From NCBI GenBank assembly GCA_035298825.1, contig DATGXR010000208.1, positions 22,473-86,472 of the forward strand: a DNA stretch of 64,000 nucleotides. The letters run 5' to 3'. The stretch is from Bacteroidota bacterium (GTDB taxonomy: Bacteria > Bacteroidota > Ignavibacteria > UBA10030 > UBA8401). The position numbers and the translations under genes are program-made. Shown here piece after piece: positions 1 to 43,134 of the stretch. The notes beneath the pieces were generated by a model. That model was not told the DNA's origin. It saw only the letters and a program-made list of their open reading frames with translations, and made no database searches. Every line of letters starts with the position of its first letter. Position 1 is the first letter of the stretch.

Positions 1-1358
1 AGCAGCAACACGTCGCCGGGCTCAAGCGTGACATCGTTCGATCCGTATGATTCATCGCGGAACATGCCGACCGCCATGCCGCTCGATTCGAGCTGCACAA
101 GCTCGCTCGTCTGTGCGCGCCACAGGATGCCCGGCGGATGGCCCGCGTTCACCGAATGCAGCGTCCGCGTCACATCGCTGTACGATGCCATGATGAGCGT
201 CGCGAAAAGTTCACTGTCCTCTGTGTCCTCGCACAACGTGTTGTTCGTTTCGCCGATGAGACATTCAAGATTCGTAAATCGCCGGCTCTCGGAACGGAGG
301 ATGCTCCTGAGCGACGCGAGAATGAACGCCGAGCCGAGTCCGTGTCCAGACACGTCGGCCACGCCAAAGATCCATTCGTTCCTGCCGCATTCGAAGCACG
401 AATACAAATCGCCTCCGACTTCGGCCGCCGGATGACATCGTGCCGCAATATCGAGTGTTGAAAACGCGGGCAGACGCTTCGGCAGAAGACTTTCCTGGAT
501 CTTTCGCGCAAAGTCAAATTCATGCCGCAGGGCTTCGGCCTCGCGAGCTTCCTTGATCAGAAGCGAGGATTTGATCGCGATGCCGAGATAGCCTGCCAGC
601 GCGGTCAGCGAAACACGGTCGCCCGTCGTGAATCTGCCCTCATGATGTTTCGACGCGACAAGCACCGCTCCCATCGATACATTGTCGGCGGCGACGGGCA
701 CGGCAAGCAGTCCAGGCTTGCCGCCCGATGATTCCGACGTCTCGGCATTTTTTTCTTCGACGATGATATGCGTATTCGCGGTGCAGACGTATTCGGCGTA
801 TCCGAGAATCTCGGTATCGCTCAGTCCGCCTGTGTCTCCGATCGAACAACGTTTCACCATGGCTGATATCGCATCGTCAATGAACGCCACAGCGCCGTAT
901 CCCACATCGAGGGTCTGCATCGCTTTCTGCAGCACCGCCATACAGATGCTGTCCTCGTCGAGCACCGAACTGACATCGTTGATGACATCGTACAACACAT
1001 GCAGTTCCTGATATCGCTCAAGGAGCTCGGTCGACAGGTTCTGCATCTCCTCTTCATTCTTGATGATGAAGACGATGACCTCGGTGGTGAAATCGAGCAC
1101 CTGTTCGCGCAACAGTTCGGTGCCCGGCAGCGGCTGGTCCAACGAATACAGATACCACTTTGAACCGTCGCGCAGCACGATCGCCCGTTCCGTTTCCTGC
1201 GCGATCTCGTTCAGGAACGGTTCGCTGCGATCCTCAACCGGTGTCTTCACAATCTCCGTCCGATCGCTGTCAAGCAGACAGAAGGGGATGCCGGTATATC
1301 TCGCGACATTGGTGAGAAATTTCGATACGGCTTCTTGTAATACTGTGCTTGCTATCAT
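1..1358 (-). CDS. PP2C-family serine phosphatase (SpoIIE/RsbU-like) with N-terminal GAF-like domain; partial, 3' end runs off the window start
   Basis: Absent from the ORF track because it has no stop inside the window. Hand translation of the minus strand gives ...CGRNEWIFGVADVSGHGLGSAFILASLRSIL... (the PP2C/SpoIIE GDVSGHG-type motif) and ...NDVTLEPGDVLLL at the window edge. The upstream half (MIASTVLQEAVSKFLTNVARYTGIPFCLLDS...NVSMGAVLVASKHHEGRFTTGDRVSLTALAGYLGIAIKSSLLIKEAREAEALRHEFDFARKIQESLLP) looks like GAF followed by the SpoIIE N-terminal region. The ATG (complement 1358-1356) lies 11 nt after the stop of the upstream gene. Confidence 0.8.
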   Translation of the reverse strand, partial: MIASTVLQEAVSKFLTNVARYTGIPFCLLDSDRTEIVKTPVEDRSEPFLNEIAQETERAIVLRDGSKWYLYSLDQPLPGTELLREQVLDFTTEVIVFIIKNEEEMQNLSTELLERYQELHVLYDVINDVSSVLDEDSICMAVLQKAMQTLDVGYGAVAFIDDAISAMVKRCSIGDTGGLSDTEILGYAEYVCTANTHIIVEEKNAETSESSGGKPGLLAVPVAADNVSMGAVLVASKHHEGRFTTGDRVSLTALAGYLGIAIKSSLLIKEAREAEALRHEFDFARKIQESLLPKRLPAFSTLDIAARCHPAAEVGGDLYSCFECGRNEWIFGVADVSGHGLGSAFILASLRSILRSESRRFTNLECLIGETNNTLCEDTEDSELFATLIMASYSDVTRTLHSVNAGHPPGILWRAQTSELVQLESSGMAVGMFRDESYGSNDVTLEPGDVLL

Positions 1359-1369
1359 CGGGGAATCGG

Positions 1370-3328
1370 TTACATGCGCTGCGATGCCACATCGGGATCG
1401 CGCAGTTGATAAATAATGATCGAATCATCGCTGTAAAAGACGCTCATATCGGCATGTGTCCGGATGTATGTCTCGCACCATTGGCGCGTGCGCCGCATGG
1501 CGTCCTTGTCGAGCGGAGCAATCTCGGAGCTGATTGCGCTGGCGTCTGAATTCTTTTCAATGAAAATAAACACAAGCGCCGTCGGAATGGAGCCGCGCTG
1601 TCCGTGCCGATATGTCGCCGGATCGTACAGCGATGTAAAATATTCATAATCGAGGAAGCGCCCGCGGTTCATTCCAGCCAGTAATATACCGCGATGCGCG
1701 ACAATTGTCCATTGATAGGGAATGTACGTCCGTTCGATCGCATACAGATTTTTGACGAATCCGTCGGGCTCTGCCGTGCTGCCGATTGCTGCGGGTGTTC
1801 CCGGAAACAACAAGATCACCGCGCCCAGCGCGCATATTGCTGCCGATGTTCGCACGCTCACGGCGAGCGCCTGCGAGAGACGGACTTTCGCCATCACCCA
1901 TTCGAACAAATCAAGGATGATTCCTGCGCAGAGTCCGATGGTGACGGCCGCGACGACACTGAGCAGGTATACCGATTGCGCTGCCGGCAGCGTTTCGGGA
2001 AGACCTGCGGCGAAGGGAGGGAGCATCGCAAGAAAGAGCATGCCCGTTGCGCCCCATCCAATCAGATGCATGTGCCAGGATTTCCGCGGACGCGGGATGA
2101 ACGCGACGGCAATGAGTACGACAAACATGCCGGCACAGCACTGGATAAACCATCCCTCGGGTATTGCAGTGATGTCGGCATAGCGATAAAAATGCGTGTC
2201 GTAGAAAATAATCTGAAGCACCGTTTGCATGGACGCATCGGCATAGGCATATGCCCATAACGCGCACGCCAAGAGGCCGAGCACGACAGTCAACATCGCA
2301 TGCAGGGCAAGCGTCCGGCCGCGAAGCCTCGGCAGCGAATGGAGAATGAAGATCGACGAGCACAGAATCGCCGCAGCGGCGAATAAACCAGCGCATCCCA
2401 CAAAAACATTGATCAGCGCGCTTGCCGCGAGTCCCGACAGGGAGGCGAAGAGTCGCAGGGGAGTTCCCTGCGTCACGTAGTTCATCAAAAATGTCAGCGA
2501 CGGGAGGAGAAAAACGAGCGCGAGCGTGAGGCTGTCCGCTTCAATCTGATGGTTCACGGAGATCGGCAGAAACGCATAGGCGCAGCCAAGAACCGCTGTT
2601 CCAATGGCAGCCTCGATGTGGCTCCGCACGGCGGCGAAAATCGTATAATAGATCGACGCGCACAGAAGGAGCGAGGAGATGAGACCGAAATAATGCACGG
2701 CGATTGTGGGATCGACCTGTGAAGCAATGCACAGGGCGCTGATGATTGCAGGCATGCCCATATACATGCGCGACGATCCGAGGTGGACCTGGTTGATCTG
2801 CAGACGCTTCACCTGTTCGAGCGTCTCGTAATATTCAGGCGACAGCGGCGCGGGATGCTCCCAGACGGGGCCGATGCGGATGATGATCGCCGCAATACAG
2901 ATTGCCAGAAACGTGCCGAGATACAACAAGCGGACGATGATCTCACGCTTCCACACGAAGGAGATCGACATGCCGAAGCGCTTCAGAATGGACGGCCGCG
3001 ACACGATTTCGACCCACCGCAGCAACACCGATTTGATCAGCACGAAACCGATATGCTTCCGCCGGTACATCATCCACCACTTGAATCCGACGATCCAGAG
3101 GCTCAGGATGACGATCGAAATATTATCGTTGATCTTCAGCTGCACGAAGATCTGCGTCATGACAATCGTCAGCAATCCCATGAACAGTCCCATCCCGAAT
3201 ACGCGCTCGGCGAGACTCTTCGAAGGGAACGCGGGGAAGAGCATCGCAGGCAGAACGGCGAACAGCATCGCGCATGCGGGCAGCATCCGGAGCATCGAAA
3301 TGATCAATATGGAATGATAGTCGCTCAT
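1370..3328 (-). CDS. large polytopic inner-membrane protein (about 14 or more hydrophobic helices, C-terminal soluble tail of about 110 aa); function unknown, candidate polymerase/export component of the EPS locus
   Basis: 652-aa ORF, almost entirely hydrophobic helices, with an AAGGA Shine-Dalgarno ahead of the ATG at 3328. It is packed 6 nt downstream of the preceding membrane-protein gene in the same operon. I see no recognisable family motif. Confidence 0.55.
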   Translation of the reverse strand: MSDYHSILIISMLRMLPACAMLFAVLPAMLFPAFPSKSLAERVFGMGLFMGLLTIVMTQIFVQLKINDNISIVILSLWIVGFKWWMMYRRKHIGFVLIKSVLLRWVEIVSRPSILKRFGMSISFVWKREIIVRLLYLGTFLAICIAAIIIRIGPVWEHPAPLSPEYYETLEQVKRLQINQVHLGSSRMYMGMPAIISALCIASQVDPTIAVHYFGLISSLLLCASIYYTIFAAVRSHIEAAIGTAVLGCAYAFLPISVNHQIEADSLTLALVFLLPSLTFLMNYVTQGTPLRLFASLSGLAASALINVFVGCAGLFAAAAILCSSIFILHSLPRLRGRTLALHAMLTVVLGLLACALWAYAYADASMQTVLQIIFYDTHFYRYADITAIPEGWFIQCCAGMFVVLIAVAFIPRPRKSWHMHLIGWGATGMLFLAMLPPFAAGLPETLPAAQSVYLLSVVAAVTIGLCAGIILDLFEWVMAKVRLSQALAVSVRTSAAICALGAVILLFPGTPAAIGSTAEPDGFVKNLYAIERTYIPYQWTIVAHRGILLAGMNRGRFLDYEYFTSLYDPATYRHGQRGSIPTALVFIFIEKNSDASAISSEIAPLDKDAMRRTRQWCETYIRTHADMSVFYSDDSIIIYQLRDPDVASQRM

Positions 3329-3334
3329 CGTTCC

Positions 3335-4999
3335 TTAGTAGGCGGCATAATAATAATAATCGAGCTTGTTGAAGAACTGGCGCGCATAGTTCATCGTCAT
3401 CAGCGCAAACACGAGCGAGCCGAACACGAGTCCTCCCACACCGTATTCATAATGGATCCAGCGGCTCAGCAGCAGACTCACCACCACATTGACGCCGAGT
3501 CCGGCGACGATCGAGCGGATCGCGAATTCGGGCCGCGAGAGCGTGAAGAAGAACAGGCAATTGTAGAGTCCGAGTGCGAGAAAAAAGTATCCGAATGCCG
3601 CCGCCCAAAAAACTTGGAATGTCACCACGTTGCTGAAAAATTCGCGTACCTCGCGGATGTAATCGAATCGCTGGAGCGAAAGGACGCCGAAGTACGTCAC
3701 CATGATGCTCAGGACGCCGATTGACAGGATGGCCGCAAGATGCCGCACAAAGAATTTTTTATAGAACATGATATACGCGCCCGCGTCGTCGTTGCGAACG
3801 CTGCGCTGCTGAAAGATCTGATGATATGAAAATTCATGAATCATATACTCGAGCGCGGCCATGGTGAGCACAAGCGAGAGCAGCGCCCAGTCCATGCCAA
3901 GTTCGTACGACGTCCTGAACCAGATGATGTACGGAGGCGGCTCCGGATTCGGCGCGGACCAGCTCACGATGCGGTCCACGAACAGATTGAAAAAGTACAG
4001 GAAGCCGTAAACGAAATACGGCGCCACCGTATACACACGCACGGGCGGATGCGGCAGCCGGCTCGATTTGAGGAACGTATCGGTCCGCTTCGCGCGGCGT
4101 CGCAGGATGAAGATCGTATAGGCGGCCGTGAGCACGATTGCAGTGCTCATGCCTGCCGCATGAGCAACGTAGATACCGAGGCGCGTGTATTCCATTACGA
4201 GATAGACGGGAATCACTCCCGCCATCGTGAAGACAAACACGGCAAATTGTTTGTCGAGCACGTAGGCCAGCGATGAAAACAGCCACAACTCGGACAGAAG
4301 CACGAAATACATGAGACTGATGAGGACGAGCCTGTTGTCGTAATAGGGAATGATGAGGTTCAGCAGGTAGAGCGCGGTGCCTGCAAGCAGAACCACGACA
4401 GTAGCCGCCGCGATGATCTTCAGCGTGATCTGCTGCGCCAGGAAATAATTCTTATGTCCCGCGTACCGTACACCTTCGCGTCCGATGCTTTGGATGAATC
4501 CTCCGGTCACGATGAAACTGAGTATCGTTCCGATTGCGACGACGGTGGCTTGCGCCTCGGTAAAGTCGACCCACGCCCAGAGCGAGTAGCGCAGGAGCAG
4601 CACGGAAGCGATCTGTCCCGCCATCGGAAGCGCAGCCCATGCGCCTTTGAAATAAAACAACAGTGCGCGGGCAAGCTTGTTCTCGCGCTTCGGTGGTTCC
4701 GGCGGTCCCTGTTCGGGCCGCGTGCGTTCGGCATCCACATGGATCAGGTACAGCACTCGTTCGGCGAGTGTGAACAGGTCGTGACGCTGGTACTGCTTGA
4801 TGGCATCGATATCGCGCAGACCGAGACTCTCGAGCGCAGCCGCCACAGCCCAGACGTCGAGCGGCTCGCCGATAAGATTGAAGACTTCGCGCGCCAGATG
4901 CACTTCCTGCTCGGCAAGAAGCGTCGAAAATACGCGCCGGGTCGTCGGGGCGACGCTCTTGATATCGTTCTGTATGTCTGTTGATTCGTCAGCGCTCAT
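3335..4999 (-). CDS. polytopic membrane protein with about 125-aa cytoplasmic N-terminal domain and about 12-13 TM helices; possibly PelG-like / MOP-superfamily polysaccharide exporter
   Basis: 554-aa ORF whose start codon overlaps the stop of the upstream GT4 gene (ATGA at 4996-4999). The TM count and position after PelF-like genes suggest an exporter, but I cannot show PelG homology by eye. Confidence 0.5.
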   Translation of the reverse strand: MSADESTDIQNDIKSVAPTTRRVFSTLLAEQEVHLAREVFNLIGEPLDVWAVAAALESLGLRDIDAIKQYQRHDLFTLAERVLYLIHVDAERTRPEQGPPEPPKRENKLARALLFYFKGAWAALPMAGQIASVLLLRYSLWAWVDFTEAQATVVAIGTILSFIVTGGFIQSIGREGVRYAGHKNYFLAQQITLKIIAAATVVVLLAGTALYLLNLIIPYYDNRLVLISLMYFVLLSELWLFSSLAYVLDKQFAVFVFTMAGVIPVYLVMEYTRLGIYVAHAAGMSTAIVLTAAYTIFILRRRAKRTDTFLKSSRLPHPPVRVYTVAPYFVYGFLYFFNLFVDRIVSWSAPNPEPPPYIIWFRTSYELGMDWALLSLVLTMAALEYMIHEFSYHQIFQQRSVRNDDAGAYIMFYKKFFVRHLAAILSIGVLSIMVTYFGVLSLQRFDYIREVREFFSNVVTFQVFWAAAFGYFFLALGLYNCLFFFTLSRPEFAIRSIVAGLGVNVVVSLLLSRWIHYEYGVGGLVFGSLVFALMTMNYARQFFNKLDYYYYAAY

Positions 5000-6501
5000 G
5001 CGTGTATCTGATTGTCGGCTGCAAGCCGTTCGTACGAAACTAAATATTCATTCATTGCGAGTGTTGTCCTGTATCGAAGCAGCACGCGGTCGCGCGAGAG
5101 CTTGCCGAGTCCCTGTCTGAGCTCGTGGTCGCGCAGCAGCGTCACAACGCCTTCGGCAAGACCCGCCGCATCGCGGGGACGCGCCAGAAGACCATAGGCC
5201 TCGACCGCTTCGCGCACTCCGCCTACGTCGGTCGCAACGACGGGCCGGGCGCATGCCATCGATTCGATGACGGTATAGGGAAATCCCTCGGAGATGCTCG
5301 AGAGAATACTGATGTCGCCCTCGTTATACACTTCGTGCGGCTTCGGATGAAACCCGCCGAAGATAAAATTTTTCTCAAGCGCATAATTACGGATGAGCGC
5401 CATGCATCGCTCCGTGTACGGCAGGTCCACATCCGCCGGACCGTAGACGATATATTGCACGTCCGGTATTTCCTTCCGCACCTCGGCACATGAATGGACC
5501 ATCGTTTCGATGTCCTTCAGCGGAAAGATGCGAGCCACGGCGACGACAGTCGGGCGATTCAGCGTCTTTTCCGGCTTCTGACGCGGCGTGAAGATTCCCG
5601 GATCGATGCCGTTGTAGATCGTCCTGATCCTGTCGCGCGATCCGCCGAATCGAAGCTCCCAGCGTTGATTGTATTCGCACACCGGCGAGATCTGATCGGC
5701 GCACGTATAGATCATGCGTGTCGCGTACGACGAGAGATTCAAGATGAACCGTTTCGCGAATCGGCTCAGCTTCTCGCTTGCAAGCGCGATATACCGTTCG
5801 CGGATGAAGATGCCATGATCCGTCACGACGATTCGCGCGCCGAATTCGTACTTCGCCGCCACTACCGCGAGACAGGAGGGACTGGCCAGCGTTGCATGGG
5901 CGATATCCACTCTGGGCAGTGCCACGCTCAACGGAAGCATGAAACTATACAGCCAGCGCAGCGCTGTCGTCACATCGAATAGGCTCGGCTGCTCTTCAGA
6001 CAAGTCACCCCATTGGCCGGCAGTCCTGAGCACCATCGCCCTGAACGTTTCCCACGTCAGACTCGAACGGAATGTCGTTTTATATTCATACTGTCTGAAA
6101 TATTTATAGAGCCGAAAAATTACCTCGGGACGCGGCGGCCGGCGGTTCGGATCGACGATGTCTTCGAGAAACTCCTCGAAGACGGGAATGAATTTTTCGC
6201 TGATGACCTCGTCCGTCGTTTCGGTCCTGTTTGTATAGATGTCGGCGAACGATCGTTCCGGCTGAATGTATTCTGACGGTTCCTCGCTGCCCCACATCGG
6301 CACCTGGCGCAGATACCGCACGTTCGACGGAAGCACATATTTCATCGTCGAGATGGGAGCGCCCGTTACCGCAATGATTGAAAAATGCACGGACTTCAAT
6401 TCGCGGATCAAACTGTCGCACCATGTGCTGACGCCGCCGCCGACGTACGGATACGTGCCTTCGGTGATGAGCAGTACGTTCAACTGGCGTTGTGCATTCA
6501 T
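4996..6501 (-). CDS. PelF-like glycosyltransferase (DUF3492 N-terminal domain + GT4 C-terminal domain)
   Basis: 501 aa. The N-terminus LNVLLITEGTYPYVGGGVSTWCDSLIRELKSVHFSIIAV matches the PelF/DUF3492 signature (P. aeruginosa PelF has CLLLEGTWPYVRGGVSSW). The C-terminal half carries a GT4 retaining-GT motif, ...ISILSSISEGFPYTVIESMACARPVVATDVGGVRE... Confidence 0.8.
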   Translation of the reverse strand: MNAQRQLNVLLITEGTYPYVGGGVSTWCDSLIRELKSVHFSIIAVTGAPISTMKYVLPSNVRYLRQVPMWGSEEPSEYIQPERSFADIYTNRTETTDEVISEKFIPVFEEFLEDIVDPNRRPPRPEVIFRLYKYFRQYEYKTTFRSSLTWETFRAMVLRTAGQWGDLSEEQPSLFDVTTALRWLYSFMLPLSVALPRVDIAHATLASPSCLAVVAAKYEFGARIVVTDHGIFIRERYIALASEKLSRFAKRFILNLSSYATRMIYTCADQISPVCEYNQRWELRFGGSRDRIRTIYNGIDPGIFTPRQKPEKTLNRPTVVAVARIFPLKDIETMVHSCAEVRKEIPDVQYIVYGPADVDLPYTERCMALIRNYALEKNFIFGGFHPKPHEVYNEGDISILSSISEGFPYTVIESMACARPVVATDVGGVREAVEAYGLLARPRDAAGLAEGVVTLLRDHELRQGLGKLSRDRVLLRYRTTLAMNEYLVSYERLAADNQIHA

Positions 6502-6505
6502 GAGA

Positions 6506-7708
6506 TCAATTCGATAATAATGTGCCGTACAATTGCCGATAGGTGCCGATCATCGCTTCGAGCGAATGTGTGCTCTCGACGATCGCCCTGCCCGCCTGCG
6601 AGCATGCCTCATAAAGCGGCCGGTCGGCAAGCAGTGACATCACGGCGCGCGCGCAGGCCGCATGATCGGCAGGGGGACAAAGAATTCCTGCATGGGCGAA
6701 GCCGGCGGGCGCAACGATCTCTGACACTCCGCCCACATCCGTTGCCACAACGGGAATGCCATACGACATCGCTTCAAGCAGTACAAGCGGCTGCGCTTCG
6801 CTTGCACTCGTGAGCACGGCCACATCGATCGACGGATAGAGGGCATGCACATCGGCCTCACCCGTAAACGAAAATTTTTTTAATCCGAGCGAATCGGCCA
6901 GTCGGACGCACTCCGCATAATACGCCGGATCGTGATGCGTGGGCCCGATGACGGACCATCGGGATTCGGGCATCGTCGTCTGCGCAACGGCGCATGCGCG
7001 TATGAACGTTGTAATATCCTTGAGCGGCGACACGCGTCCCACGAGCGCGATGTGTGCAGCTCCAGTTCTCGTTGTGTATGCCGAGATCTGCCGATCGATC
7101 GCCACGCCGTTTGGAATCACACGCGCCTTCCTCTCGCTTGCACCGAGTGCGATCTGGCTTCGACGGTTAAAATCGCAGACCGTCGTGATCGCATCGGCCG
7201 CCTCGTACGCATCGAGTGCGAGCGAGCGAAACGTTTCGCTCCAGCTTTCCCACGTGCGGCCGAGCGCGAGCGGTCCCGCTTCGGTTTCGACGATCTTGAA
7301 TCCGCATTCGAGTTCGCCGATGCCCAGTTCAGCCTCGCGCCAGTAGAGTCCGTGTTCAGTCAGCAGCATTGGTGCGCGGCGGCGCCGTTTCAGCGCCGTG
7401 CCGAGGTATCCCGCAAATCCCGTCGAAAGGGGATGATACATGCGCGCAACCGGCACCTGATCGAGCAGCGTATCGAGTCCAATTGTGAGCGGAGTGCCAT
7501 GCTCGGGTGCATTGAGCGAGATATCGACAACAGAACGGATATTCGACGGAACTCTGTAGCGTTTCTCTCGCGGTCTCTCTCCATAATACAAATGCGCCAC
7601 GCAAAACGTCAGTTCACTCAATCCGTTGACAAGCGCATCGACCCACGCTGCCACTCCTCCCGTTTTGTACGGGTACGTTCCTTCAAGCACGAGGCAGATA
7701 TCGGTCAT
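6506..7708 (-). CDS. second PelF-like GT4 glycosyltransferase (shorter paralogue)
   Basis: 400 aa. The N-terminus ICLVLEGTYPYKTGGVAAWVDALVNGLSELTFCV carries the same DUF3492-type motif, followed by a GT4 EX7E-type region (...LTSASEAQPLVLLEAMSYGIPVVATDVGGVSE...). The start overlaps the stop of the upstream kinase gene (ATGA at 7705-7708). Confidence 0.75.
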   Translation of the reverse strand: MTDICLVLEGTYPYKTGGVAAWVDALVNGLSELTFCVAHLYYGERPREKRYRVPSNIRSVVDISLNAPEHGTPLTIGLDTLLDQVPVARMYHPLSTGFAGYLGTALKRRRRAPMLLTEHGLYWREAELGIGELECGFKIVETEAGPLALGRTWESWSETFRSLALDAYEAADAITTVCDFNRRSQIALGASERKARVIPNGVAIDRQISAYTTRTGAAHIALVGRVSPLKDITTFIRACAVAQTTMPESRWSVIGPTHHDPAYYAECVRLADSLGLKKFSFTGEADVHALYPSIDVAVLTSASEAQPLVLLEAMSYGIPVVATDVGGVSEIVAPAGFAHAGILCPPADHAACARAVMSLLADRPLYEACSQAGRAIVESTHSLEAMIGTYRQLYGTLLSN

Positions 7709-8118
7709 GTCGACTGGGCCTGTTTGGTGGAGATGGACATTTTCAATTCGGTGCCAACCGGCTGCTGGATGAGCTGCACATCGTCCATCAGCGAACGGAT
7801 GAGGTAGATGCCGTATCCGCCTTCGCTTGCGATGTCGGTATCGGGCGAATCATATTGATCCATTCGCATCCCGATGCCGTAATCGCGAATGTTCAGTCGA
7901 ATTGTCGATCCATCGATTTCAAGCGACACATCCACGCGTCCCTCACGCGCCGGTTTGTATCCATGGACGATGCAGTTGGTCACCGCCTCGCTCGACGCAA
8001 GCAGTACACGATTCACGATGTCGGCATGGATGCCCGTGTCGATGAGCGTATCCGCGATCCAATTTCGGATCTCCTTTACTTTTTCAGGCGTGCAGTGGAA
8101 CGATGACTGTGCGTTCAT
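7705..8118 (-). CDS. anti-sigma regulatory factor / partner-switching serine kinase (RsbW/SpoIIAB-like, HATPase_c_2)
   Basis: 137 aa with ...SEAVTNCIVHGY...VDVSLEIDGSTIRLNIRDYGIGM...GGYGIYLIRSLMDDV, the N-box and G-box pattern of GHKL-type anti-sigma kinases. It sits inside the EPS operon. Confidence 0.75.
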   Translation of the reverse strand: MNAQSSFHCTPEKVKEIRNWIADTLIDTGIHADIVNRVLLASSEAVTNCIVHGYKPAREGRVDVSLEIDGSTIRLNIRDYGIGMRMDQYDSPDTDIASEGGYGIYLIRSLMDDVQLIQQPVGTELKMSISTKQAQST

Positions 8119-8199
8119 GCCGTTTTTTCTTTCGGTGATTGTAAAGATCGTGCGATGCTGTCCGCGATCGAAGGCGGTCGGTACACCGCGGTCCGTTAC

Positions 8200-9051
8200 T
8201 TATCGTGCCGGCAGGGTATTCAATTCGATCGTGCTGACAAACGATGAAAATCCATGGCTCCGTGACTGGTTGCGCGCATATGCGCGCGTCAGCGAATCGC
8301 CCTCAGGCGCATAATCGATCGCAAAAATCCTGAGTCCGTACGAGGTATGGAGCGCGGCGAGTTCGGCGCAGCGCGTCTCCGATGCGTCCTTCCGCACCGG
8401 GATGTACGTTTTATCCTTAAAATTATATGTGGCGAATACACTTTCAACAACAATGCCGTCGATCGCATCAGCGACTTCGGGAGCAAGAAACGTTCCATTG
8501 TTCATGAGTATGATCTTGTCGGGAAACTCCTCACGCATTGCATGGATGAGCTCGACCACGCCCGGCCGCAGCATCGGATAGAGGTCGGGTGATGCCACAT
8601 CCACCATATCGAGAAAAATTCCCTTGAATGATTTTCCAAAAATCACGGGAAGCACTTGGTCGATCAGCAGGGAATGCCAGCCGGATTTTGAGGCGTCGAC
8701 GTAAAAATGATCGGGCCAATTCGGATTCGCTCCCAACATCCATTCGGGACGGATATCCTTGTAATACCATCTGTACGATTCGGCCTCGCCGATGTTGATG
8801 TACGCGACGGGAATGATACCGCGTGCCGAGAGCGAATCGGCTTCATGCCTGCGGCTCTGGTCGGGATCGATGATCATCATCTGATACGGCAGCATCCGTG
8901 CGAGGCTGTAGTCGCCGGAAAACTGGACTCCGAAGTGATCGACAGAAGTAAGAGCGGTGCGTGGATTCGGATGACCCGGGCCGGACGATTCGCGACAGGC
9001 AAACGCAGTGATCAAACAAAGCAACAGCAGCGAAGCGAAGAGTGTGCGCAT
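8200..9051 (-). CDS. GH114-like glycoside hydrolase lipoprotein (PelA hydrolase-domain-like / TM1410 family; putative endo-alpha-1,4-polygalactosaminidase)
   Basis: Signal peptide plus lipobox (MRTLFASLLLLCLITAFAC) followed by a TIM-barrel-like region with ...GIIPVAYINIGEAESYRWYY...GIFLDMVDV...ILMNNGTFL...IDGIVVESVF, reminiscent of the GH114 family. Start taken at the internal ATG (9051); the ORF-track start is 9099. Confidence 0.6.
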   Translation of the reverse strand: MRTLFASLLLLCLITAFACRESSGPGHPNPRTALTSVDHFGVQFSGDYSLARMLPYQMMIIDPDQSRRHEADSLSARGIIPVAYINIGEAESYRWYYKDIRPEWMLGANPNWPDHFYVDASKSGWHSLLIDQVLPVIFGKSFKGIFLDMVDVASPDLYPMLRPGVVELIHAMREEFPDKIILMNNGTFLAPEVADAIDGIVVESVFATYNFKDKTYIPVRKDASETRCAELAALHTSYGLRIFAIDYAPEGDSLTRAYARNQSRSHGFSSFVSTIELNTLPAR

Positions 9052-9196
9052 TGATTGGTGATCGATTTTTCGTGTTATAATAGAGAATTTTCTAATCAAA
9101 AAATATACGATAAAACGTACTTACATACAATTGATCTCTGTATAATGAGGCAGAAAACGCCGAAAAAAATCCCGTCATCGGCCGAGGCTTCGCATG

Positions 9197-10663
9197 TCAA
9201 TTCGATCTGGAGATCCGGGCTGAAAGCGAGCCGACGGCGATCGTCGTCATCGAACCGATCACAGTGTGCCAGGTAAAATCGATCTTCGTCCAAAACACAA
9301 CATACACCATCACGAGAATGCCGCAGAGAAATCCGATCACGGCATCGCGCTGATCGGTTCGATGAAACAGGATTCCGAGAAAGAAGGTCCCGAGCAGTCC
9401 GCCGTATGTGAACGAGGCGATCTTCAGACCGATCTCGACAACCGGATTTGTCGTGTCGGTGAAGAGCATCGCTCCGCCGATGAGCACCACGCCCCAGAAG
9501 AGCGTGAACACCTTCGACCAGGTCATTTCTGTTTTGGCGTCGAGAGCTTTGCCTTTGGCGGTCATCCTGAACAGATCGAGGAATGTCGAAGACGCGAGCG
9601 AGTTGATCGATGACGACAGCGTTCCCATGGCCGATGCCAGCACGCCCGCCACAAGCAGTCCGGCCAGTCCCGTGGGCAGATTCTCGACGATGAATTTCGG
9701 AAAGATTTCATCGCTCGAATGAAGTCCCAATTGCTGAAAGGGGACGCCATGATAGAAGGCGAACAGGCAGAGGCCGAGGATGAGGAAAAACGCGAATTGC
9801 AGCACGATCATCGTCGCATCGAGCATCAATGCCCGCTGGCTGTCCCATTGTTTTCTGCATCCGAGCAGACGCTGTACGAGCAACTGATCGGTGCCGTGCG
9901 AGGCCATTGTGAGAAACGTGCCGCCCACGAATCCGCCGATGAGCGTATAGGGCGTGGTGAAGAATGAAAGGAGGTCTGAGGGCGCGCTCAGGTTGAAGAT
10001 CTCGAATTTGTTCGATCCGCCGGCGGTCGCATAGGCGAAGACGTCGGCCCAGCCGTTGGGAAGGTGCTGGATGATCAGGACCATCGAAGCCGCGGCGCCC
10101 GTCAGATAAATGCACATCTGCACCACATCCATCGCCACGACGGCCTTCAATCCGCCGACGTACGTATAGGCGAGCGTAAACGCGCCGATGAGAAGAATGC
10201 TGTGCGCGTACGAGAGTCCGGTGACCAGATGCACGGGGATGGCGGTGGCGAAGAGCCTCACGCCCGAGGCGAGCACGCGTGTGACGATGAAGACGCTCGA
10301 TGTAAATGTGCGCAGCGGAATTCCATAGCGCTTGCCGAGGAAATCGTATGCTGTTTCGAGATTGCCCTTGTAATAGGCCGGGATGAAGATGACGCTCACA
10401 AGCAGTCTGCCGATGAAATACCCGAAAACAAGCTGGAGAAAATGCATGTCGCTTCGATAGGCGAGGCCGGGGATGCTGATGAATGTGAGCGTGCTTGTTT
10501 CGCTTGCGACGATCGAGAATCCGACCGACCACCAGGACATCGATTTTCCGCCGAGAAAATAGTCACGCGTCGTTTGTTGCCGGCCTGCGATGATGGCGCC
10601 GATGACGGTGACGCCGAGGAGATAGATGATGACGATAACGTAATCGAGGAAGGCAAAACCCAT
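9197..10663 (-). CDS. sodium:solute symporter family (SSF/SLC5-like) transporter
   Basis: About 490 aa with 13-14 TM helices and SSF-like patterns (...GGKSMSWWSVGFSIVASETSTLTFISIPGLAY...). Start chosen at MGFAFLDYVIVIIY, which has an AAGGA Shine-Dalgarno 7 nt upstream. Confidence 0.8.
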   Translation of the reverse strand: MGFAFLDYVIVIIYLLGVTVIGAIIAGRQQTTRDYFLGGKSMSWWSVGFSIVASETSTLTFISIPGLAYRSDMHFLQLVFGYFIGRLLVSVIFIPAYYKGNLETAYDFLGKRYGIPLRTFTSSVFIVTRVLASGVRLFATAIPVHLVTGLSYAHSILLIGAFTLAYTYVGGLKAVVAMDVVQMCIYLTGAAASMVLIIQHLPNGWADVFAYATAGGSNKFEIFNLSAPSDLLSFFTTPYTLIGGFVGGTFLTMASHGTDQLLVQRLLGCRKQWDSQRALMLDATMIVLQFAFFLILGLCLFAFYHGVPFQQLGLHSSDEIFPKFIVENLPTGLAGLLVAGVLASAMGTLSSSINSLASSTFLDLFRMTAKGKALDAKTEMTWSKVFTLFWGVVLIGGAMLFTDTTNPVVEIGLKIASFTYGGLLGTFFLGILFHRTDQRDAVIGFLCGILVMVYVVFWTKIDFTWHTVIGSMTTIAVGSLSARISRSN

Positions 10664-10754
10664 GGACGATCCTTCTTCAGATGTCGGTGGCCGCATGTGA
10701 AACGGCGCTTGCGAGAGTGCGCCGTCTCACACGGGAAAAGTGCATGTGCAGAAG

Positions 10755-11087
10755 TCAGGCTTTTTCGGCTTTTGCAACAGAGTCGAAGACGGGGAAGACC
10801 TTGTCGAGCTGTGAGATCTTAAGCAGCGACAGAACTTTTTTATGCACGCCCACAAGCTTGACTTTGCCTCCTTGCTGGCGCATGAGGCGTTCGGCGATCA
10901 GCAGAGCACTGAGACCCGAGCTGTCGCAAAATTCGACGTCGCCCAAATCTACGATCAGTGTTTTGACTGTGGGACGGCACAAGAGGATGAACTCGCCTTT
11001 CAATTCCGGAGAGACGGACACATCCAGCTTCCGTTCCTTGACGACGAGCACGACACTGTTCGCATTCTTGGTCACCTCAAACTTCAT
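10755..11087 (-). CDS. STAS-domain anti-sigma-factor antagonist (SpoIIAA/RsbV-like)
   Basis: 110-aa product MKFEVTKNANSVVLVVKERKLDVSVSPELKGEFILL...LIVDLGDVEFCDSSGLSALLIAERLMRQQGGKVKLVGV is a classic STAS fold, with the DSSGL motif holding the phosphorylatable Ser. The ORF track extends upstream from a TTG; start chosen at the internal ATG. Confidence 0.75.
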   Translation of the reverse strand: MKFEVTKNANSVVLVVKERKLDVSVSPELKGEFILLCRPTVKTLIVDLGDVEFCDSSGLSALLIAERLMRQQGGKVKLVGVHKKVLSLLKISQLDKVFPVFDSVAKAEKA

Positions 11088-11106: not shown

Positions 11107-11649
11107 TTAAAACATTGCAAGCGTGTTGACCAGCTGCTCGTATTGAAGTTTCGGCATACGCGCCGATGCTGTCTGCAGCTGTAGATTGTAGACCGTTTCG
11201 CTCTGCGGTGAACCGAATCCCGCTTTGAGCGGCACATCGAGCTGAGCGCAGACTGATGCGGCCAGCGGAGTGATGCCAAGATTGAGGTCGACGATCACGT
11301 CGTATGTCCGTTCGCGCAGCCGGGTGATGAGCGAGGCCTTCGGCAAAAAGAAATATCCGATCTGATCCTCGTGCACGGGCACCATCATGCATTGGTGAAG
11401 CTTGCCGGCGATCGAGTGCGAGGTCTCCGTCGACGAAAGGATCGTCATTGAATTCCCCTTAAACTGCATTTGAGCGTGCTGCACGACGGAGAGTGCGATT
11501 GAACGATGCGCTTCGTCGAACGGCATAATGAACAAGGCCGAGCGCGCCTTCGTATAGATGCCCCGAAAATTTATTTGTTTCGCGCGCAACCGGCGTCCCT
11601 GCACGCGCGCGATCATCATGCCGATATTTTTTCTCAAGTCTTCAAACAT
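11107..11649 (-). CDS. hypothetical protein (weak resemblance to the C-terminal half of GT9 heptosyltransferase-like proteins)
   Basis: 180 aa from the internal ATG (ORF track 11107..11703). The segment DVIVDLNLGITPLAASVCAQLDVPLKAGFG loosely resembles the GT9 ...G.MHLAAALGVP...FG... region. No confident family assignment. Confidence 0.4.
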   Translation of the reverse strand: MFEDLRKNIGMMIARVQGRRLRAKQINFRGIYTKARSALFIMPFDEAHRSIALSVVQHAQMQFKGNSMTILSSTETSHSIAGKLHQCMMVPVHEDQIGYFFLPKASLITRLRERTYDVIVDLNLGITPLAASVCAQLDVPLKAGFGSPQSETVYNLQLQTASARMPKLQYEQLVNTLAMF

Positions 11650-11772
11650 AACTGGAATTAAATTGCAAAAGGTTTGAATGAAAAGCAAGAACGGCCGGCT
11701 CAAAAAAATTACGGATCACGTATGTGTGCGACAGTTCGCGAGAGCAACCGCCCATGCGCTTCTGTGCGATGC

Positions 11773-14747: not shown

Positions 14748-16937
14748 TTATCCTAATTGCATGGTCAGAACCGCCTGCAGCTTCGATGCGAGCTCGTGCT
14801 CGACATACGGCTTGCGCAGAAATCCGTCGACATTCTTGACGAACGATTCATTCGTCGTTATCGCGTCGTTGTATCCGCTCGAGATGAGAATCCTGCCCGG
14901 AAATTTTTTTCGCTTGATCTTCTGGAACAATTTTTCTCCATTCATCTGCGGCATCGTCATATCGAGGATCATCAGATCGAAGCTGCGCTCGCCGAGCAGC
15001 TCGAGGGCCTCCTTGCCGCTCTGCACCGAATGCGGCGCATACCCGAGGTCCTTCAACATCGTCGAGAGCGTATAGCAGATCATCGCCTCATCGTCGACGA
15101 TGAGCACCGTCTCGCCGTTGCCTTTCGAAATTTTCACCGCGCTGTCGGACGGTTGTGCCGCCTGCTCCCAGAGCAGCGGAAACGTCAGCGCAAATGTCGA
15201 TCCCTTTCCCGGAGTCGATGTCACAGAGACGGATCCGTTATGCGATTTCATGACGCCGTACACGACGGAAAGCCCGAGCCCCGTTCCTTTGCCGCTTTCC
15301 TTCGTGGTATAGAACGGCTCGAAGATGTGCTGCTTCACGCTGACGTCCATGCCCGTGCCCGTGTCCGTTACAGAGAGCGTGACAGTCCGATCGTGCGGAT
15401 TCACGGCGGTTGAAATGGCGATGCTGCCGCCGTCGGGCATCGCATCACGTGCGTTGAGCAGGATGTTCAGGATGGATTGCTGAATCTGTCCCTCGTCTCC
15501 GTTGATGAACACCGGCATCGGTTCATCCTGCCGCGCGATCGTTACCGAGTCGGGGACGCCCGTCTCGAACAGCGCGAGTGTTTCGTCAAGAATGAGATGA
15601 AGGTCGACCGTGTGGAGTTCGGCCGGAGTGCGCCGCGCAAACGTCAGCAGCTGCGTGGTGAGCTTTGCTCCGCGCTGTGCCGCCAGTGTGATGATCTCGA
15701 TGAACGGAAAGAGCTTGTGCTGCGTCGTGACGCGCCGCTTCATGATGGCGGCGGCGTTGCCGATGGACGTCAGCAGGTTGTTGAAATCGTGCGCCACGCC
15801 GCCCGCAAGGTTGCCGATGCTGTCGATCTTCTGCGCCTGAATGATCTTCTCCTCGAACTTCTTCTTCTCGGTGATGTCGCGCACCACGCATCGGAGCGAG
15901 ACCGGCACTCCGATCTCGTTATAGACGAATGATGAATTCACGCTCACATCGATGCGTGTGCCGTCGCGCCGGATCATCTGATGTTCCTCGTCGCGCGCCT
16001 CGCGCTCGAGCTCGAACGTGCATCGGATGAATTCCTGTACCTTCGCATGCTGGTCCGACGGATAAATGCGCGTGAGATGCGTATTGACGATCTCCTGCTT
16101 GTCGTACCCGAGTGTGGCGGCCTCGGTCTGATTGCAGCCGATGATCGTTCCGCTGCGGTCGATCAGATGGTACATATCGGGGGAGTGTTCGAACAGATCG
16201 GCGTACTGCTCCTGAGATTTTTTGAGTTGAGAAAACATATGCGCGTTGTTGAGCGCGACGTTGATCTGATTGCCGAAGGCGGAGATAAGATTGATCTTGT
16301 TCTGCGAAAAAAAATCGGATGAGCTGCTTGCGAGGATGATGGCGCCGGCGCACCGGTCCGCCGTGCGCAGCGGCACAACGACCCAGGACGCGATGCGATG
16401 GGCGCCGACCTGCGGATGAAGCGGCGGCATCTCGTCCCGGCGGGTCTCCTTGCTCGTGTGGATCGACTGCAGCCACTGCAGCGACGCCTGCGAGTGCAGC
16501 GAGCCGGCGTCGAAAAACGTCGTGAGCACGCCGCTCGAGCGTTTCAGCACGAGCGTTTCGTTCTCGATGATGTAGAGCCATCCGTATTCGTTTTTAAGAA
16601 GACCGGTGACGGTGGTGAGCACGGTCTCGAAGATCGTTCCGAGTTCCATCATCCGGTTGACGGTCTGGGCCACTGTGTTCAACGCAACAAGCTCGCAGTT
16701 CTGCTCTTCAAACTGACGGCCGTACTTGAGTGAAAAATATACACCGGTGAATCCGATCACACCGACAGTCACGATGCTGATGAACTCGAAGAATCCGATT
16801 GTTTTATTCAGCACGATGTTGGCGCTGATGATCGTCACCATCATGACCACGACGCCGGTCGACGCGACGATTTGAGCCTGTTCGACGAGGCCGAGGTGGA
16901 ATGAAAACGCACGCAGACGGTGAAAAATTTTTTTCAT
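14748..16937 (-). CDS. hybrid sensor histidine kinase (TM region, GAF, PAS, HisKA, HATPase_c, C-terminal receiver)
   Basis: H-box ...GGVAHDFNNLLTSI..., N- and G-boxes ...DTGTGMD...GTGLGLSVVYGVM..., and a C-terminal REC ...VLIVDDEAMI...LMILDMTMPQMNGEKL.... Start placed at MKKIFHRL (16937), which leaves a 64-nt gap to the upstream response-regulator gene; the ORF-track start at 17039 would overlap that gene by 38 nt. Confidence 0.8.
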   Translation of the reverse strand: MKKIFHRLRAFSFHLGLVEQAQIVASTGVVVMMVTIISANIVLNKTIGFFEFISIVTVGVIGFTGVYFSLKYGRQFEEQNCELVALNTVAQTVNRMMELGTIFETVLTTVTGLLKNEYGWLYIIENETLVLKRSSGVLTTFFDAGSLHSQASLQWLQSIHTSKETRRDEMPPLHPQVGAHRIASWVVVPLRTADRCAGAIILASSSSDFFSQNKINLISAFGNQINVALNNAHMFSQLKKSQEQYADLFEHSPDMYHLIDRSGTIIGCNQTEAATLGYDKQEIVNTHLTRIYPSDQHAKVQEFIRCTFELEREARDEEHQMIRRDGTRIDVSVNSSFVYNEIGVPVSLRCVVRDITEKKKFEEKIIQAQKIDSIGNLAGGVAHDFNNLLTSIGNAAAIMKRRVTTQHKLFPFIEIITLAAQRGAKLTTQLLTFARRTPAELHTVDLHLILDETLALFETGVPDSVTIARQDEPMPVFINGDEGQIQQSILNILLNARDAMPDGGSIAISTAVNPHDRTVTLSVTDTGTGMDVSVKQHIFEPFYTTKESGKGTGLGLSVVYGVMKSHNGSVSVTSTPGKGSTFALTFPLLWEQAAQPSDSAVKISKGNGETVLIVDDEAMICYTLSTMLKDLGYAPHSVQSGKEALELLGERSFDLMILDMTMPQMNGEKLFQKIKRKKFPGRILISSGYNDAITTNESFVKNVDGFLRKPYVEHELASKLQAVLTMQLG

Positions 16938-17001
16938 AAAGACAGTAGAAAAAAAGAGAGAGGATGTGAAACGGTCACGAAGATGGCGCCCGGCCCGCCG
17001 C

Positions 17002-18288
17002 TTACAAACGATGGGGGGCAAGCCGCAACTGCACTTCATGAGACCGCTTGATCTTGCCTTCGATCGTCGCCAGGAACAATTCGAGATCGACCGGCTTCAG
17101 GAAGTACCCGTCCGCTCCCATTTGCATGCCCGTTCGCTGCACGGCTTCCTGCGCCATGCCGCTTAAAAAGAGGAAGGGACAATGGAAAAATTTTTCCATT
17201 GCACGGAACTTTTCATAGAACGCAAATCCGCTGATGTTCGGTTTCGAGAAATTGACGTCGCACACGACGATATCCGGAGTGAGCGACTCGAGCGTCTTCA
17301 ACGCATCTTCGCATGTGGGAACCGCAACACAGTACAGACCCGCATCGGTCAGCTGCCTGCCCGCCAATTCGAGGAATTCGGTGTCGTCGTCTACAAGCAG
17401 CACTGTGCCCACCGAGCGGAGCGACTGGAGCAGACGAAACACGCGTCCTTCGATCTGCAGATGTTCCTGGTCCGAGATCCTGAACTGCCGTCGAAGATCA
17501 TCGAAGTTCGTGATGCCTTTCTTCCAGGCATGTTCGATCGCATTCACATAGGCGTCGAAACGGACCTCGCGCTCGATTGAAAGATGCTCCTCGTTCGTAA
17601 TTGCAAACGAGTCGCGCATTGCGCGCACACGTTCGCGATCCTCATCCGTGATCACGCCATTCTCCCAGACCTCGCTGAGCAGCGTCTTGTAGGCCTGGAG
17701 GAGTGCCGGTGTATGCTTCATAAAATCGAACGGCGGTTGAAGCGGAACCTCGAGTGTGACCGGCGTCTGGGCCGCCGCAGTATCAACGGGAGACGGAGGG
17801 GGAGCCTCGTGTGTCAACGTTTCCGACACCGAATCATACGGCGCACTCTCGTCTTGTTCCGCGTTTGTCGCCGGGACCGCATCCGTCACAGGCGCCGCAT
17901 CAGTCGCGGGCTCCGGTTCGCGCATCTGCGGAAGTTCCTGCGACTGAGGTTCAGTTGATTCCGTTTCGGCCGGCTGAGGCTCCTGGGGCGCGGCGGATTC
18001 CGATTCGACAGCTTGAGCCTTCGCGGACTCCAGTTCCATTACGGCCTTCGCGTTTTCCGCCGCAAGTTTTTCGGCATGCGCCTTGGCGGCGATCTGCGAT
18101 TCTTTCAGCGAAAGAATGCGCTCCTGATACGCGCGCGCGTACACATTACGGGGATCGAATTCGAAAACCCGGCTGATGGCGGCGAGAGCAAGATCGAGGT
18201 TGCCATCTTTGATCGACTTATCCGCCGATCGGAGAAGTTCGCTCACCGCTCTTTGATTCTCTGGTGTCATATGTCTGTGGTCTGCCAT
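17002..18288 (-). CDS. atypical response regulator: N-terminal TPR-like segment, long Glu/Pro-rich acidic linker, two tandem ~30-aa repeats, C-terminal receiver (REC) domain
   Basis: The REC domain is at the C-terminus (...VLLVDDDTEFLELAGRQLTDAGLYCVAVPTCEDALKTLESLTPDIVVCDVNFSKPNISGF...LKP...), not the N-terminus. Internal repeats: ITDEDRERVRAMRDSFAITNEEHLSIEREV and ITNFDDLRRQFRISDQEHLQIEGRV. Confidence 0.7.
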   Translation of the reverse strand: MADHRHMTPENQRAVSELLRSADKSIKDGNLDLALAAISRVFEFDPRNVYARAYQERILSLKESQIAAKAHAEKLAAENAKAVMELESAKAQAVESESAAPQEPQPAETESTEPQSQELPQMREPEPATDAAPVTDAVPATNAEQDESAPYDSVSETLTHEAPPPSPVDTAAAQTPVTLEVPLQPPFDFMKHTPALLQAYKTLLSEVWENGVITDEDRERVRAMRDSFAITNEEHLSIEREVRFDAYVNAIEHAWKKGITNFDDLRRQFRISDQEHLQIEGRVFRLLQSLRSVGTVLLVDDDTEFLELAGRQLTDAGLYCVAVPTCEDALKTLESLTPDIVVCDVNFSKPNISGFAFYEKFRAMEKFFHCPFLFLSGMAQEAVQRTGMQMGADGYFLKPVDLELFLATIEGKIKRSHEVQLRLAPHRL

Positions 18289-18294
18289 TTCGTG

Positions 18295-19143: not shown

Positions 19144-19191
19144 AGGGTCCGCATTGTGTTCGATTGAGACGCTGCAGCGGGTCTGCATGAC

Positions 19192-19234
19192 AAAAAAAAC
19201 CTAATCCCGTGTGACACAAAGATTAGGTTTTTTT
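19192..19234 (-). terminator. bidirectional rho-independent terminator-like hairpin after the TPR gene
   Basis: AAAAAAAACCTAATC-ccgtgtgacacaaa-GATTAGGTTTTTTT has a 9-bp stem flanked by an A-run and a T-run. Confidence 0.6.
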
Positions 19235-19252
19235 ACATCCGTAGGAGATTCC

Positions 19253-43055: not shown

Positions 43056-43056
43056 G

Positions 43057-43134
43057 TTAGAAGTTCTCCGGCTTGATCAATGTGTAGATCAGATATCCGA
43101 GAACAAGTGCAGCGATAATCGATGTCAGAATCAT
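43057..43134 (-). CDS. kdpF: KdpF small hydrophobic subunit (25 aa)
   Basis: Hand-translated, below the ORF-track size cutoff: MILTSIIAALVLGYLIYTLIKPENF. Its stop lies 1 nt before the kdpA ATG, and an AAGGA Shine-Dalgarno sits upstream. The ...LGYL.Y.L..PE.F pattern matches known KdpF peptides. Confidence 0.6.
   Translation of the reverse strand: MILTSIIAALVLGYLIYTLIKPENF

Follow-up and report, generated by a model that had tools for sequence, protein, structure and literature searches.

How might a Pel-type exopolysaccharide locus be controlled when no PelD can be recognised in it? Pel is regarded as being among the most widespread biofilm polysaccharide systems, and it is described as almost invariably regulated by cyclic di-GMP (c-di-GMP) via PelD (PMC7890745). 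The question is raised by a co-directional row of genes that runs on the minus strand from position 11703 to the start of a 64,000-nucleotide stretch of DNA from a bacterium of the Ignavibacteria lineage (GenBank assembly GCA_035298825.1, contig DATGXR010000208.1, positions 22,473 to 86,472 of the forward strand), hereafter the window. In this row, genes for Pel-type biosynthetic proteins stand together with genes for a STAS-domain protein, an RsbW-like serine kinase and a PP2C phosphatase, i.e. a partner-switching set. On balance, we read the row as part of a variant of the Pel-type exopolysaccharide operon, of which the window shows the upstream two-thirds, up to a cut by the window edge inside the PP2C gene; taken whole, with the mechanism set out below, this is an explanation that we consider somewhat better than evenly likely.

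Domains were called by Pfam and NCBIfam profile searches of the window proteins, and these upheld all the assignments (STAS, sodium:solute symporter (SSF), GH114, RsbW-type kinase, DUF3492 plus GT4, and GAF-PP2C) that a first-pass annotation had made from the DNA. Relatives' contigs, designated by L-numbers, were retrieved with a 652-aa membrane protein of the row as marker, and partly with the short PelF, and their gene order was compared by tblastn; a metagenome scan with a narrow alignment of the 652-aa protein gave three loci. All genes of the row given below by their coordinates lie on the minus strand.

The Pel-type character of the locus is carried first by two tandem glycosyltransferases (GTs). 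Both had been taken for PelF paralogues, and both exceed the cut-off (100 bits) of the NCBIfam PelF model NF038011, the short one (6506-7708, 400 aa) with 286 bits and the long one (PelFL, 4996-6501, 501 aa) with 167 bits. The long paralogue has a full DUF3492 (PF11997, 159.8 bits) plus GT4; the short one matches PF11997 with 150 bits in two stretches, its N-terminal domain lacking about 85 model positions. The EX7E motif is kept in both paralogues, as is RxxxxK, in all loci, and nearly all long-PelF orthologues have EX7E in the form EGFPYTVIE. Homologues of the short PelF, about 400 aa long, occur widely across Ignavibacteria, Anaerolineae and Kryptonia, and the single PelF of a distant locus, L015, is matched best by the long PelF. 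An NAD-dependent epimerase gene that is not in the window lies between the short and the long PelF in L008 (5863-6777), L013 (11273-12199) and the P0135 contig (5809-6723), an arrangement reminiscent of the PelX UDP-GlcNAc 4-epimerase. This gene is the one indirect hint at a partially deacetylated alpha-1,4-GalNAc product.

Downstream of the PelF pair lie two polytopic membrane proteins that had been described as 'two unknown giant membrane proteins', and neither of them deserves the term any longer. The first (3335-4999, 554 aa) matches PF16933 (PelG) with 44 bits over profile positions 63-452, above the gathering cut-off of 29; it has no NCBIfam match, and PelG orthologues occupy the same position in all related loci. 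The GH114-type hydrolase (8200-9051/9099, 283-299 aa, from an ATG at 9051 or with the open reading frame (ORF) extended to a TTG at 9099) matches PF03537 (Glyco_hydro_114) with 80.7 bits and, in a phmmer search against the PDB, TM1410 (E 2e-17) and Pseudomonas aeruginosa PelA (9cgy, 5e-11; 5tcb, 9e-10). The cysteine that ends its hydrophobic signal peptide is kept in six of seven orthologues. It is thus probably a PelA-hydrolase-like lipoprotein of the GH114/TM1410 family, as had been proposed on both counts. No window protein and no entry in the Pfam lists of the related loci matches GGDEF or PelD_GGDEF, and no PelE- or PelC-like gene was recognised, the profiles searched including none built for PelE or PelC. 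Its pair of PelF paralogues, its PelG and its GH114 protein of the PelA-hydrolase kind mark the locus, by these profile matches, as one of Pel type.

The second membrane protein (1370-3328, 652 aa) has no sequence match in Pfam, NCBIfam or the PDB. It has about 13-14 transmembrane (TM) helices and a C-terminal alpha/beta domain, and an AlphaFold2 model built from a 128-sequence alignment reached a predicted local distance difference test score (pLDDT) of 92 and a predicted TM-score (pTM) of 0.93; an earlier model from a 6-sequence alignment (pLDDT 49) was discarded. The closest folds to the model are en-bloc oligosaccharyltransferases and polyprenyl-phosphate-sugar transferases. We are therefore confident of the predicted GT-C fold and regard the protein as a membrane glycosyltransferase-like member of a new, unnamed family, its activity being a prediction. 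Among 128 family members D68 (D/E in 95%) and E107 (D/E in 99%) are conserved, as are R151, K174 and G191; the extracytoplasmic placement of D68 and E107 comes from a positive-inside reading of the sequence alone. A word-based search had returned five matches, and the idea that the family is very rare was rejected when an exhaustive profile (hidden Markov model) search gave 603 clusters at 50% identity, 447 of them at E<=1e-10 and nearly all of 600-700 aa. In every context sampled, including L015 (about 17-21% identity), the GT-C gene stands beside PelF and PelG. Two family members, P0170 (1379 aa) and P0177 (1264 aa; L020 71-3865), have a C-terminal HlyD/membrane-fusion-protein domain, which hints at a link between the family and trans-envelope export.

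The regulators are equally recognisable. The kinase (7705-8118, 137 aa) matches PF13581 (HATPase_c_2) with 94 bits against a cut-off of 27.4, its similarity to the SpoIIAB and RsbW equivalog models staying below their cut-offs, and its sequence shows the N, G1 and G2 motifs as the N-box EAVTN, DYGIG and GGYG; by these features it is a GHKL serine kinase of the RsbW/SpoIIAB type. Its stop codon overlaps the start codon of the short PelF in an ATGA at 7705-7708. The kinase gene lies directly upstream of the short PelF in 10 of the 10 loci where it is visible, and in 9 of these 10 the two genes overlap or are within 10 nt of each other. The phosphatase, a GAF-PP2C protein of the SpoIIE/RsbU type, is visible for its first 452 aa (1-1358), its gene extending past the window start; over this part it matches PF07228 (SpoIIE) with 103 bits, the GAF match being weak. 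Full-length orthologues of 516-518 aa occupy the same position in L002, L004, L005-L009 and L016-L018.

The third member of the set, STAS1 (10755-11087, 110 aa), matches PF01740 with 60.5 bits and the anti-sigma-antagonist superfamily model TIGR00377 with 61.7 bits (cut-off 53.45), and has a DSSGL motif where the phosphorylated serine sits; it is a single-domain protein of the anti-sigma-antagonist type with a phosphorylatable-serine motif. It is 98% identical in the window, in L001 (2103-2429) and in L004 (2236-2562), against 55-85% for the neighbouring genes and 73-84% for the housekeeping neighbour LigA, which points to unusually strong purifying selection for a 110-aa regulator. Just past its stop codon lies a GC-rich stem-loop (10697-10745, minus strand; minimum free energy -30.5 kcal/mol, z -4.2 against shuffles) that recurs after STAS1, with a different stem sequence, in L001 (about 2458-2492) and L004 (about 2596-2623). 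There is no U-tract behind it, and it is possibly a terminator, an attenuator or an RNA-processing site between STAS1 and the SSF gene. Since so strong a hairpin follows STAS1, the gene may be transcribed apart from the rest.

Is the association of these genes anything but accidental? The order GH114, kinase, short PelF, long PelF, PelG, 652-aa protein and GAF-PP2C is found in L001, L002, L004-L009 and L016-L018, the GT-C marker being 33-64% identical to that of the window across the Ignavibacteria-type contigs. L001 is the closest relative (LigA 84% identical), and L004 is an 'Ignavibacteriae' metagenome-assembled genome (MAG). About a dozen contigs, independent of one another, share this order, so the arrangement is not a matter of chance. 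It also reaches into other lineages. In the Kryptonia-like L014, the short PelF of which has an identical counterpart under the NCBI name 'Candidatus Chrysopegis kryptomonas', the genes run Hpt, GH114, kinase, short PelF, long PelF, PelG-like, a diverged GT-C, GAF-PP2C, receiver, a GAF-HD_5-STAS fusion and DUF2194. In the Anaerolineae MAG L013 they run cNMP-PP2C, GAF-HD_5, STAS, kinase, short PelF, epimerase, long PelF and a 1,023-aa PelG-like protein. L019 and the P0135 contig are unassigned metagenome contigs: the former has GAF-PP2C, receiver, sensor kinase, receiver, a STAS1-type gene, kinase, short PelF, GT4, DUF2194, GT-C, GAF-HD_5, a STAS2-type gene, long PelF and PelG, and the latter has kinase, short PelF, ankyrin, epimerase, long PelF, PelG-like, GT-C, PP2C and receiver. 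The synteny comparison thus bears out, at the level of gene order, the first-pass claim that a partner-switching set is embedded in the Pel-type operon: the set is conserved with Pel-type genes across several lineages. The very distant L015 has HD_5, GH114, one PelF, PelG-like, GT-C, ATP-grasp, CE4 and MurJ-like genes. As an observation on the sample itself, L005 (JBLMZA010000067.1) is labelled Acidobacteriota, is syntenic with the Ignavibacteria-type loci and encodes proteins 56-85% identical to theirs; it is probably mis-binned or mislabelled.

What the window edge cuts off can be read from the relatives. Wherever their contigs extend far enough, PP2C is followed by four genes, for a stand-alone receiver, a GAF-HD_5 protein, a second STAS protein (STAS2) and a DUF2194+TPR protein. 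The GAF-HD_5 protein, of about 515 aa, has the signature HHExxDGxGYP and matches solved HD-GYP phosphodiesterases. STAS2 is present in all Ignavibacteria-type loci that reach that far, and in L014; it is 24% identical to STAS1, and the DSS serine motif is kept in both. In the DUF2194+TPR protein (1,250-1,340 aa), TPR repeats accompany a signal peptide and a C-terminus rich in beta strands, the last residues of which are SYRY; the N-terminal part of the protein matches PDB 9zau at E 2e-51. It lies four genes downstream in L004, L006-L009 and L016, and DUF2194 is found also in L014 and L019. In Gram-positive PelA, DUF2194 accompanies the CE4 deacetylase domain and is a hallmark of that protein (PMC7890745). 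From its domains, the DUF2194+TPR protein looks like a PelA-deacetylase/PelB-like export fusion, a counterpart of the Gram-positive PelA deacetylase. The lack of a CE4 deacetylase and of PelB that had been reported for this locus is accordingly an artefact of where the window ends.

The HD-GYP protein bears on the opening question. The partner-switching set had been proposed to stand in the operon 'instead of PelD'; the absence of GGDEF and PelD matches agrees with this, but the substitution is not a plain one, as the relatives' operon also has the GAF-HD-GYP protein and the second STAS. Because relatives carry these two in the operon, a cyclic-dinucleotide input probably remains, and with it the link of the system to c-di-GMP. 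L014 encodes a single protein of 691 aa (18015-20090) that joins GAF-HD-GYP to the second STAS, a Rosetta-stone fusion by which the partner switch is connected with the HD-GYP module. We considered whether the GAF-HD-GYP protein might be an analogue of PelD anchored in the membrane, and dropped this idea because the protein has no convincing TM segments. In the Balneolaceae, a version of the HD-GYP protein (L010 7574-9136; also L003 and L011) has GSP for GYP and no recognisable GAF domain, and could be a degenerate receptor rather than an enzyme.

By a modest balance of probability, then, we hold that a partner switch gates a Pel-type system post-translationally. PelG and the two PelFs would form the cytoplasmic and inner-membrane core for polymerisation and translocation; at the periplasmic face, the GT-C protein would decorate or extend the polymer using a polyprenyl-phosphate-linked sugar, the GH114 lipoprotein would trim it, and the DUF2194-TPR protein would deacetylate and export it. 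On the regulatory side, PP2C, under its own GAF domain and the adjacent receiver, would dephosphorylate STAS, and unphosphorylated STAS would capture the kinase, so that the kinase's other partner would be set free. Because the kinase gene overlaps the short-PelF gene, this partner is most likely the short PelF (or the synthase complex), which would play the role that the sigma factor plays in RsbW/SigB. STAS2 would report to the GAF-HD-GYP protein and thus tie the switch to c-di-GMP, and the GAF-HD-GYP/STAS/kinase/PP2C set would take the regulatory place of PelD.

Several points weigh against this explanation. The receiver, HD-GYP, STAS2 and DUF2194 genes were seen only in relatives, at the 33-64% GT-C identity given above, and the target of the kinase is proposed from gene adjacency alone. 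In the window, STAS1 is split from the kinase by the SSF and GH114 genes, with the strong hairpin behind it. The catalytic competence of the GT-C protein and its membrane orientation are predictions only, and the window locus contains no GT2 polyprenyl-phosphate sugar synthase; a GT2, paired with DUF2304, was seen in L015 only. A polymer made with two GT4s and a GT-C enzyme need not be the Pel-like N-acetylgalactosamine/galactosamine (GalNAc/GalN) polymer. Finally, partner-switch genes are lacking in the Balneolaceae loci (L003, L010, L011), L012 and L015, all of which have the biosynthetic core, the Balneolaceae having two-component genes instead; since the same core runs there without switch genes, the switch is an optional layer.

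The readings that compete with post-translational gating differ in how well they survive the same evidence. Sigma control is the textbook role of the RsbV/W/U and SpoIIAA/AB/E triads, and in a classical anti-sigma switch the kinase would sequester a sigma factor encoded elsewhere and so control transcription of the operon or of a wider regulon. The below-cut-off similarity of the kinase to SpoIIAB/RsbW and the match of STAS1 to the anti-sigma-antagonist superfamily model would both suit such a switch; however, no sigma factor gene was found in the gene lists of about 15 loci or among the window proteins scanned, and the feature that is conserved is the overlap of the kinase gene with the short PelF rather than linkage to a sigma gene. 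Nor does the module dictate a sigma output: many STAS/RsbW modules have non-sigma outputs, SypA/SypE and HsbA among them. All4160 is another such case (PMC13555669). We regard an anti-sigma switch as unlikely here, if still worth serious attention.

Of about the same low standing is the possibility that STAS1 serves the adjacent SSF symporter, as STAS domains do in SulP/SLC26 carriers, and that the true partner of the kinase is STAS2, past the window edge. The SSF gene (9197-10696, 499 aa) matches PF00474 with 138.8 bits and TIGR00813 with 209 bits; its true start is probably the ATG at 10663, and orthologues align from residue 12. STAS1 and the SSF gene are neighbours that L001 and L004 conserve as a pair, and both are missing upstream of L008, which has STAS2; moreover, STAS2 and not STAS1 is the paralogue present in L014 and in every Ignavibacteria-type locus of sufficient reach. 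On the other hand, the STAS1-type gene of L019, 37% identical to the window STAS1, lies directly upstream of the kinase gene and overlaps it, with no SSF nearby; STAS1 has the DSSGL phospho-motif; and the hairpin comes between STAS1 and the SSF gene. The two roles of STAS1, with the SSF and with the kinase, are not mutually exclusive. As for the SSF itself, orthologues with about 85% identity occur in L001, L002 and L004; the L008 cluster has no such gene upstream of it, and none was detected in L013, L014 or L019. The SSF gene is a lineage-specific insertion, a passenger or accessory gene outside the conserved unit, so that the symporter that had been counted into the unit is indeed there but does not belong to it.

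A lipid-carrier pathway strikes us as more doubtful still. Here, the PelF-like GT4s would build a polyprenyl-linked oligosaccharide, PelG would flip it, and the GT-C protein would polymerise it or transfer it to a periplasmic acceptor (polymer, lipid or protein). The confidently predicted GT-C fold, with its nearest neighbours among en-bloc oligosaccharyltransferases and polyprenyl-phosphate-sugar transferases, speaks for this pathway, as do the constant company of PelF and PelG, two GT4s that are catalytically intact by their motifs and so suit repeat-unit logic, and the GT2, DUF2304 and MurJ-like genes of L015. Yet no locus contains an initiating phosphoglycosyltransferase, the TPR/beta-rich exporter, the PelA-like hydrolase and the DUF2194 protein are standard parts of a synthase-dependent Pel system, and the two HlyD-fused family members hint at a role in export. 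We give similarly little credence to a bolder scheme, in which the RsbW-like kinase would be an 'anti-glycosyltransferase factor' that holds the short PelF until unphosphorylated STAS displaces the kinase. Once freed, the PelF pair would supply PelG, acting as flippase, and the GT-C protein, acting as polymerase or transferase. The system would thus be a hybrid of a cytoplasmic PelF core and a lipid-linked periplasmic step that depends on GT-C, under a branched switch (STAS1 to the enzymes, STAS2 to the GAF-HD-GYP protein) that has no PelD.

That the regulators are unrelated neighbours, clustered by coincidence, is very improbable: the gaps of 58-145 nt around the STAS, SSF and GH114 genes could hold promoters, but overlapping start and stop codons tie together kinase, PelFs, PelG, GT-C and PP2C, and the association recurs in Ignavibacteria-type, Kryptonia-like and Anaerolineae loci and in the two unassigned metagenome contigs.

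These spacings also qualify the first-pass picture of ten tightly packed genes. The row is co-directional as described, and the ATGA overlaps at 7705-7708 and 4996-4999 were verified, but tight packing (-4 to +11 nt) holds only for the run from the kinase through both PelFs, PelG and the 652-aa protein to PP2C; the intergenic gaps set STAS, SSF and GH114 apart. The gap between STAS1 and SSF, of 58-91 nt, holds no gene. The hypothetical gene that had been placed there, an ORF of 198 aa (11107-11703), lies instead upstream of STAS1, between it and ligA. It matches no Pfam or NCBIfam family, and has orthologues of 170-198 aa in the same position in L001 (66% identity) and L004 (55%); its true start is probably an internal ATG near 11616-11649. 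An Rfam search of the window gave no riboswitch or other RNA match, and a scan for sigma-70 promoters and terminators, ill-suited to the host phylum, found nothing above background.

The remainder of the window is ordinary chromosome, with ligA, a RodZ-like gene, a hybrid sensor kinase, a receiver protein, aroE, a TPR protein, dUTPase, metH, a kdp operon with kdpDE, a TolC/HlyD/ABC-2 set, a squalene/phytoene synthase, ruvB, one tRNA-Leu and a protein with a type IX secretion system (T9SS) sorting tail, the last of which agrees with an origin in the FCB group. Two proteins are encoded upstream of ligA, at 14748-18288 on the minus strand: a hybrid histidine kinase of 763 aa with GAF and PAS domains, and a protein of 428 aa whose C-terminal part is a receiver. 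It is possible that they are inputs to the receiver of the exopolysaccharide operon or to PP2C; as members of the unit they were set aside, since ligA and the RodZ-like gene intervene and the region is outside the relatives' contigs. A 584-aa ORF on the plus strand (41322-43076), with no Pfam match, lies where a minus-strand kdpA would be expected, upstream of kdpB (39247-41361), and is probably a shadow ORF.

The locus type represents a whole branch of Pel-like clusters without PelD or recognisable PelE, which extends over Ignavibacteria, Kryptonia, Balneolaceae, Anaerolineae and other lineages. On the explanation that we favour, post-translational gating of a Pel-type system, a serine-phosphorylation partner switch and an HD-GYP protein would stand in PelD's place in many of its members. 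The locus type brings in a predicted GT-C-fold enzyme never before linked to Pel, from a new GT-C family with a clear genomic context, and it offers a natural test case for the activation of PelF-PelG and for the passage of the polymer through the membrane, which for Pel is still under question. It would also be another probable example of partner-switch modules that control enzymes rather than sigma factors.

Compared with the pelABCDEFG operon of P. aeruginosa, the locus shares a PelF-family GT4, PelG and a PelA-hydrolase-like domain, and its relatives share a TPR export protein and a deacetylase-type module. It differs in lacking PelD (TM-GAF-degenerate GGDEF) and any recognisable PelE or PelC, in having PelF duplicated, with a short and a long form, and in having the hydrolase as a separate lipoprotein; relatives fuse the DUF2194 deacetylase-type module to the TPR/beta-rich exporter, and the locus type adds the GT-C protein, the HD-GYP protein, the receiver and the STAS/kinase/PP2C set. 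The Bacillus cereus pelDEA(DA)FG operon is similar in that PelA is split into a hydrolase and a DUF2194 deacetylase around a PelF-PelG core (Whitfield et al. 2020, PMC7112168; PMC7890745). However, B. cereus keeps PelD and PelE, control by c-di-GMP via PelD, and one PelF; a GT-C protein, a partner switch and a TPR or outer-membrane part are all missing from its cluster, whereas the present locus belongs to diderm bacteria of the FCB group, with DUF2194 fused to a TPR/beta-rich module. Surveys of pel diversity report duplications, Gram-positive variants and pel-like clusters with distant PelD/PelE, and the present architecture is not among them (PMC7112194, PMC7112168, epsSMASH preprint); the pel-like cluster families of the epsSMASH preprint belong to other lineages and still have distant PelD and PelE. 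In agreement with the first-pass suggestion that the arrangement had not been described as a unit, we found no published description of it in the searchable full-text literature, a scope that excludes most subscription journals.

Of its individual parts, the 652-aa GT-C protein has no detectable sequence similarity to ArnT, PglB/AglB/STT3, AftA, PMT or GtrC/YfhO-type proteins, and unlike known GT-C enzymes it is embedded in a Pel-type locus, where none has been described. The partner switch has its parallels in other polysaccharide systems. In Vibrio fischeri Syp, the phosphorylation of the STAS protein SypA is set by SypE, an RsbW-like kinase/PP2C protein, inside a polysaccharide locus, and SypA and SypE control polysaccharide output without a known sigma factor. 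Syp, however, is of the Wzx/Wzy type with unrelated enzymes, and SypE unites in one protein the kinase, receiver and phosphatase that here are three genes, with a PelF gene coupled to that of the kinase. Among demonstrated cases, the closest precedent for control at the enzyme level is Anabaena HenR/All4160/Alr3423, where a polysaccharide glycosyltransferase is switched directly through a STAS domain on which serine kinases and a PP2C phosphatase act (PMC13555669, 2026). The Anabaena GT carries its STAS domain as a fusion, and the genes of that system are scattered, whereas here STAS is free-standing (HD-GYP-fused in one relative) and the GT is a PelF.

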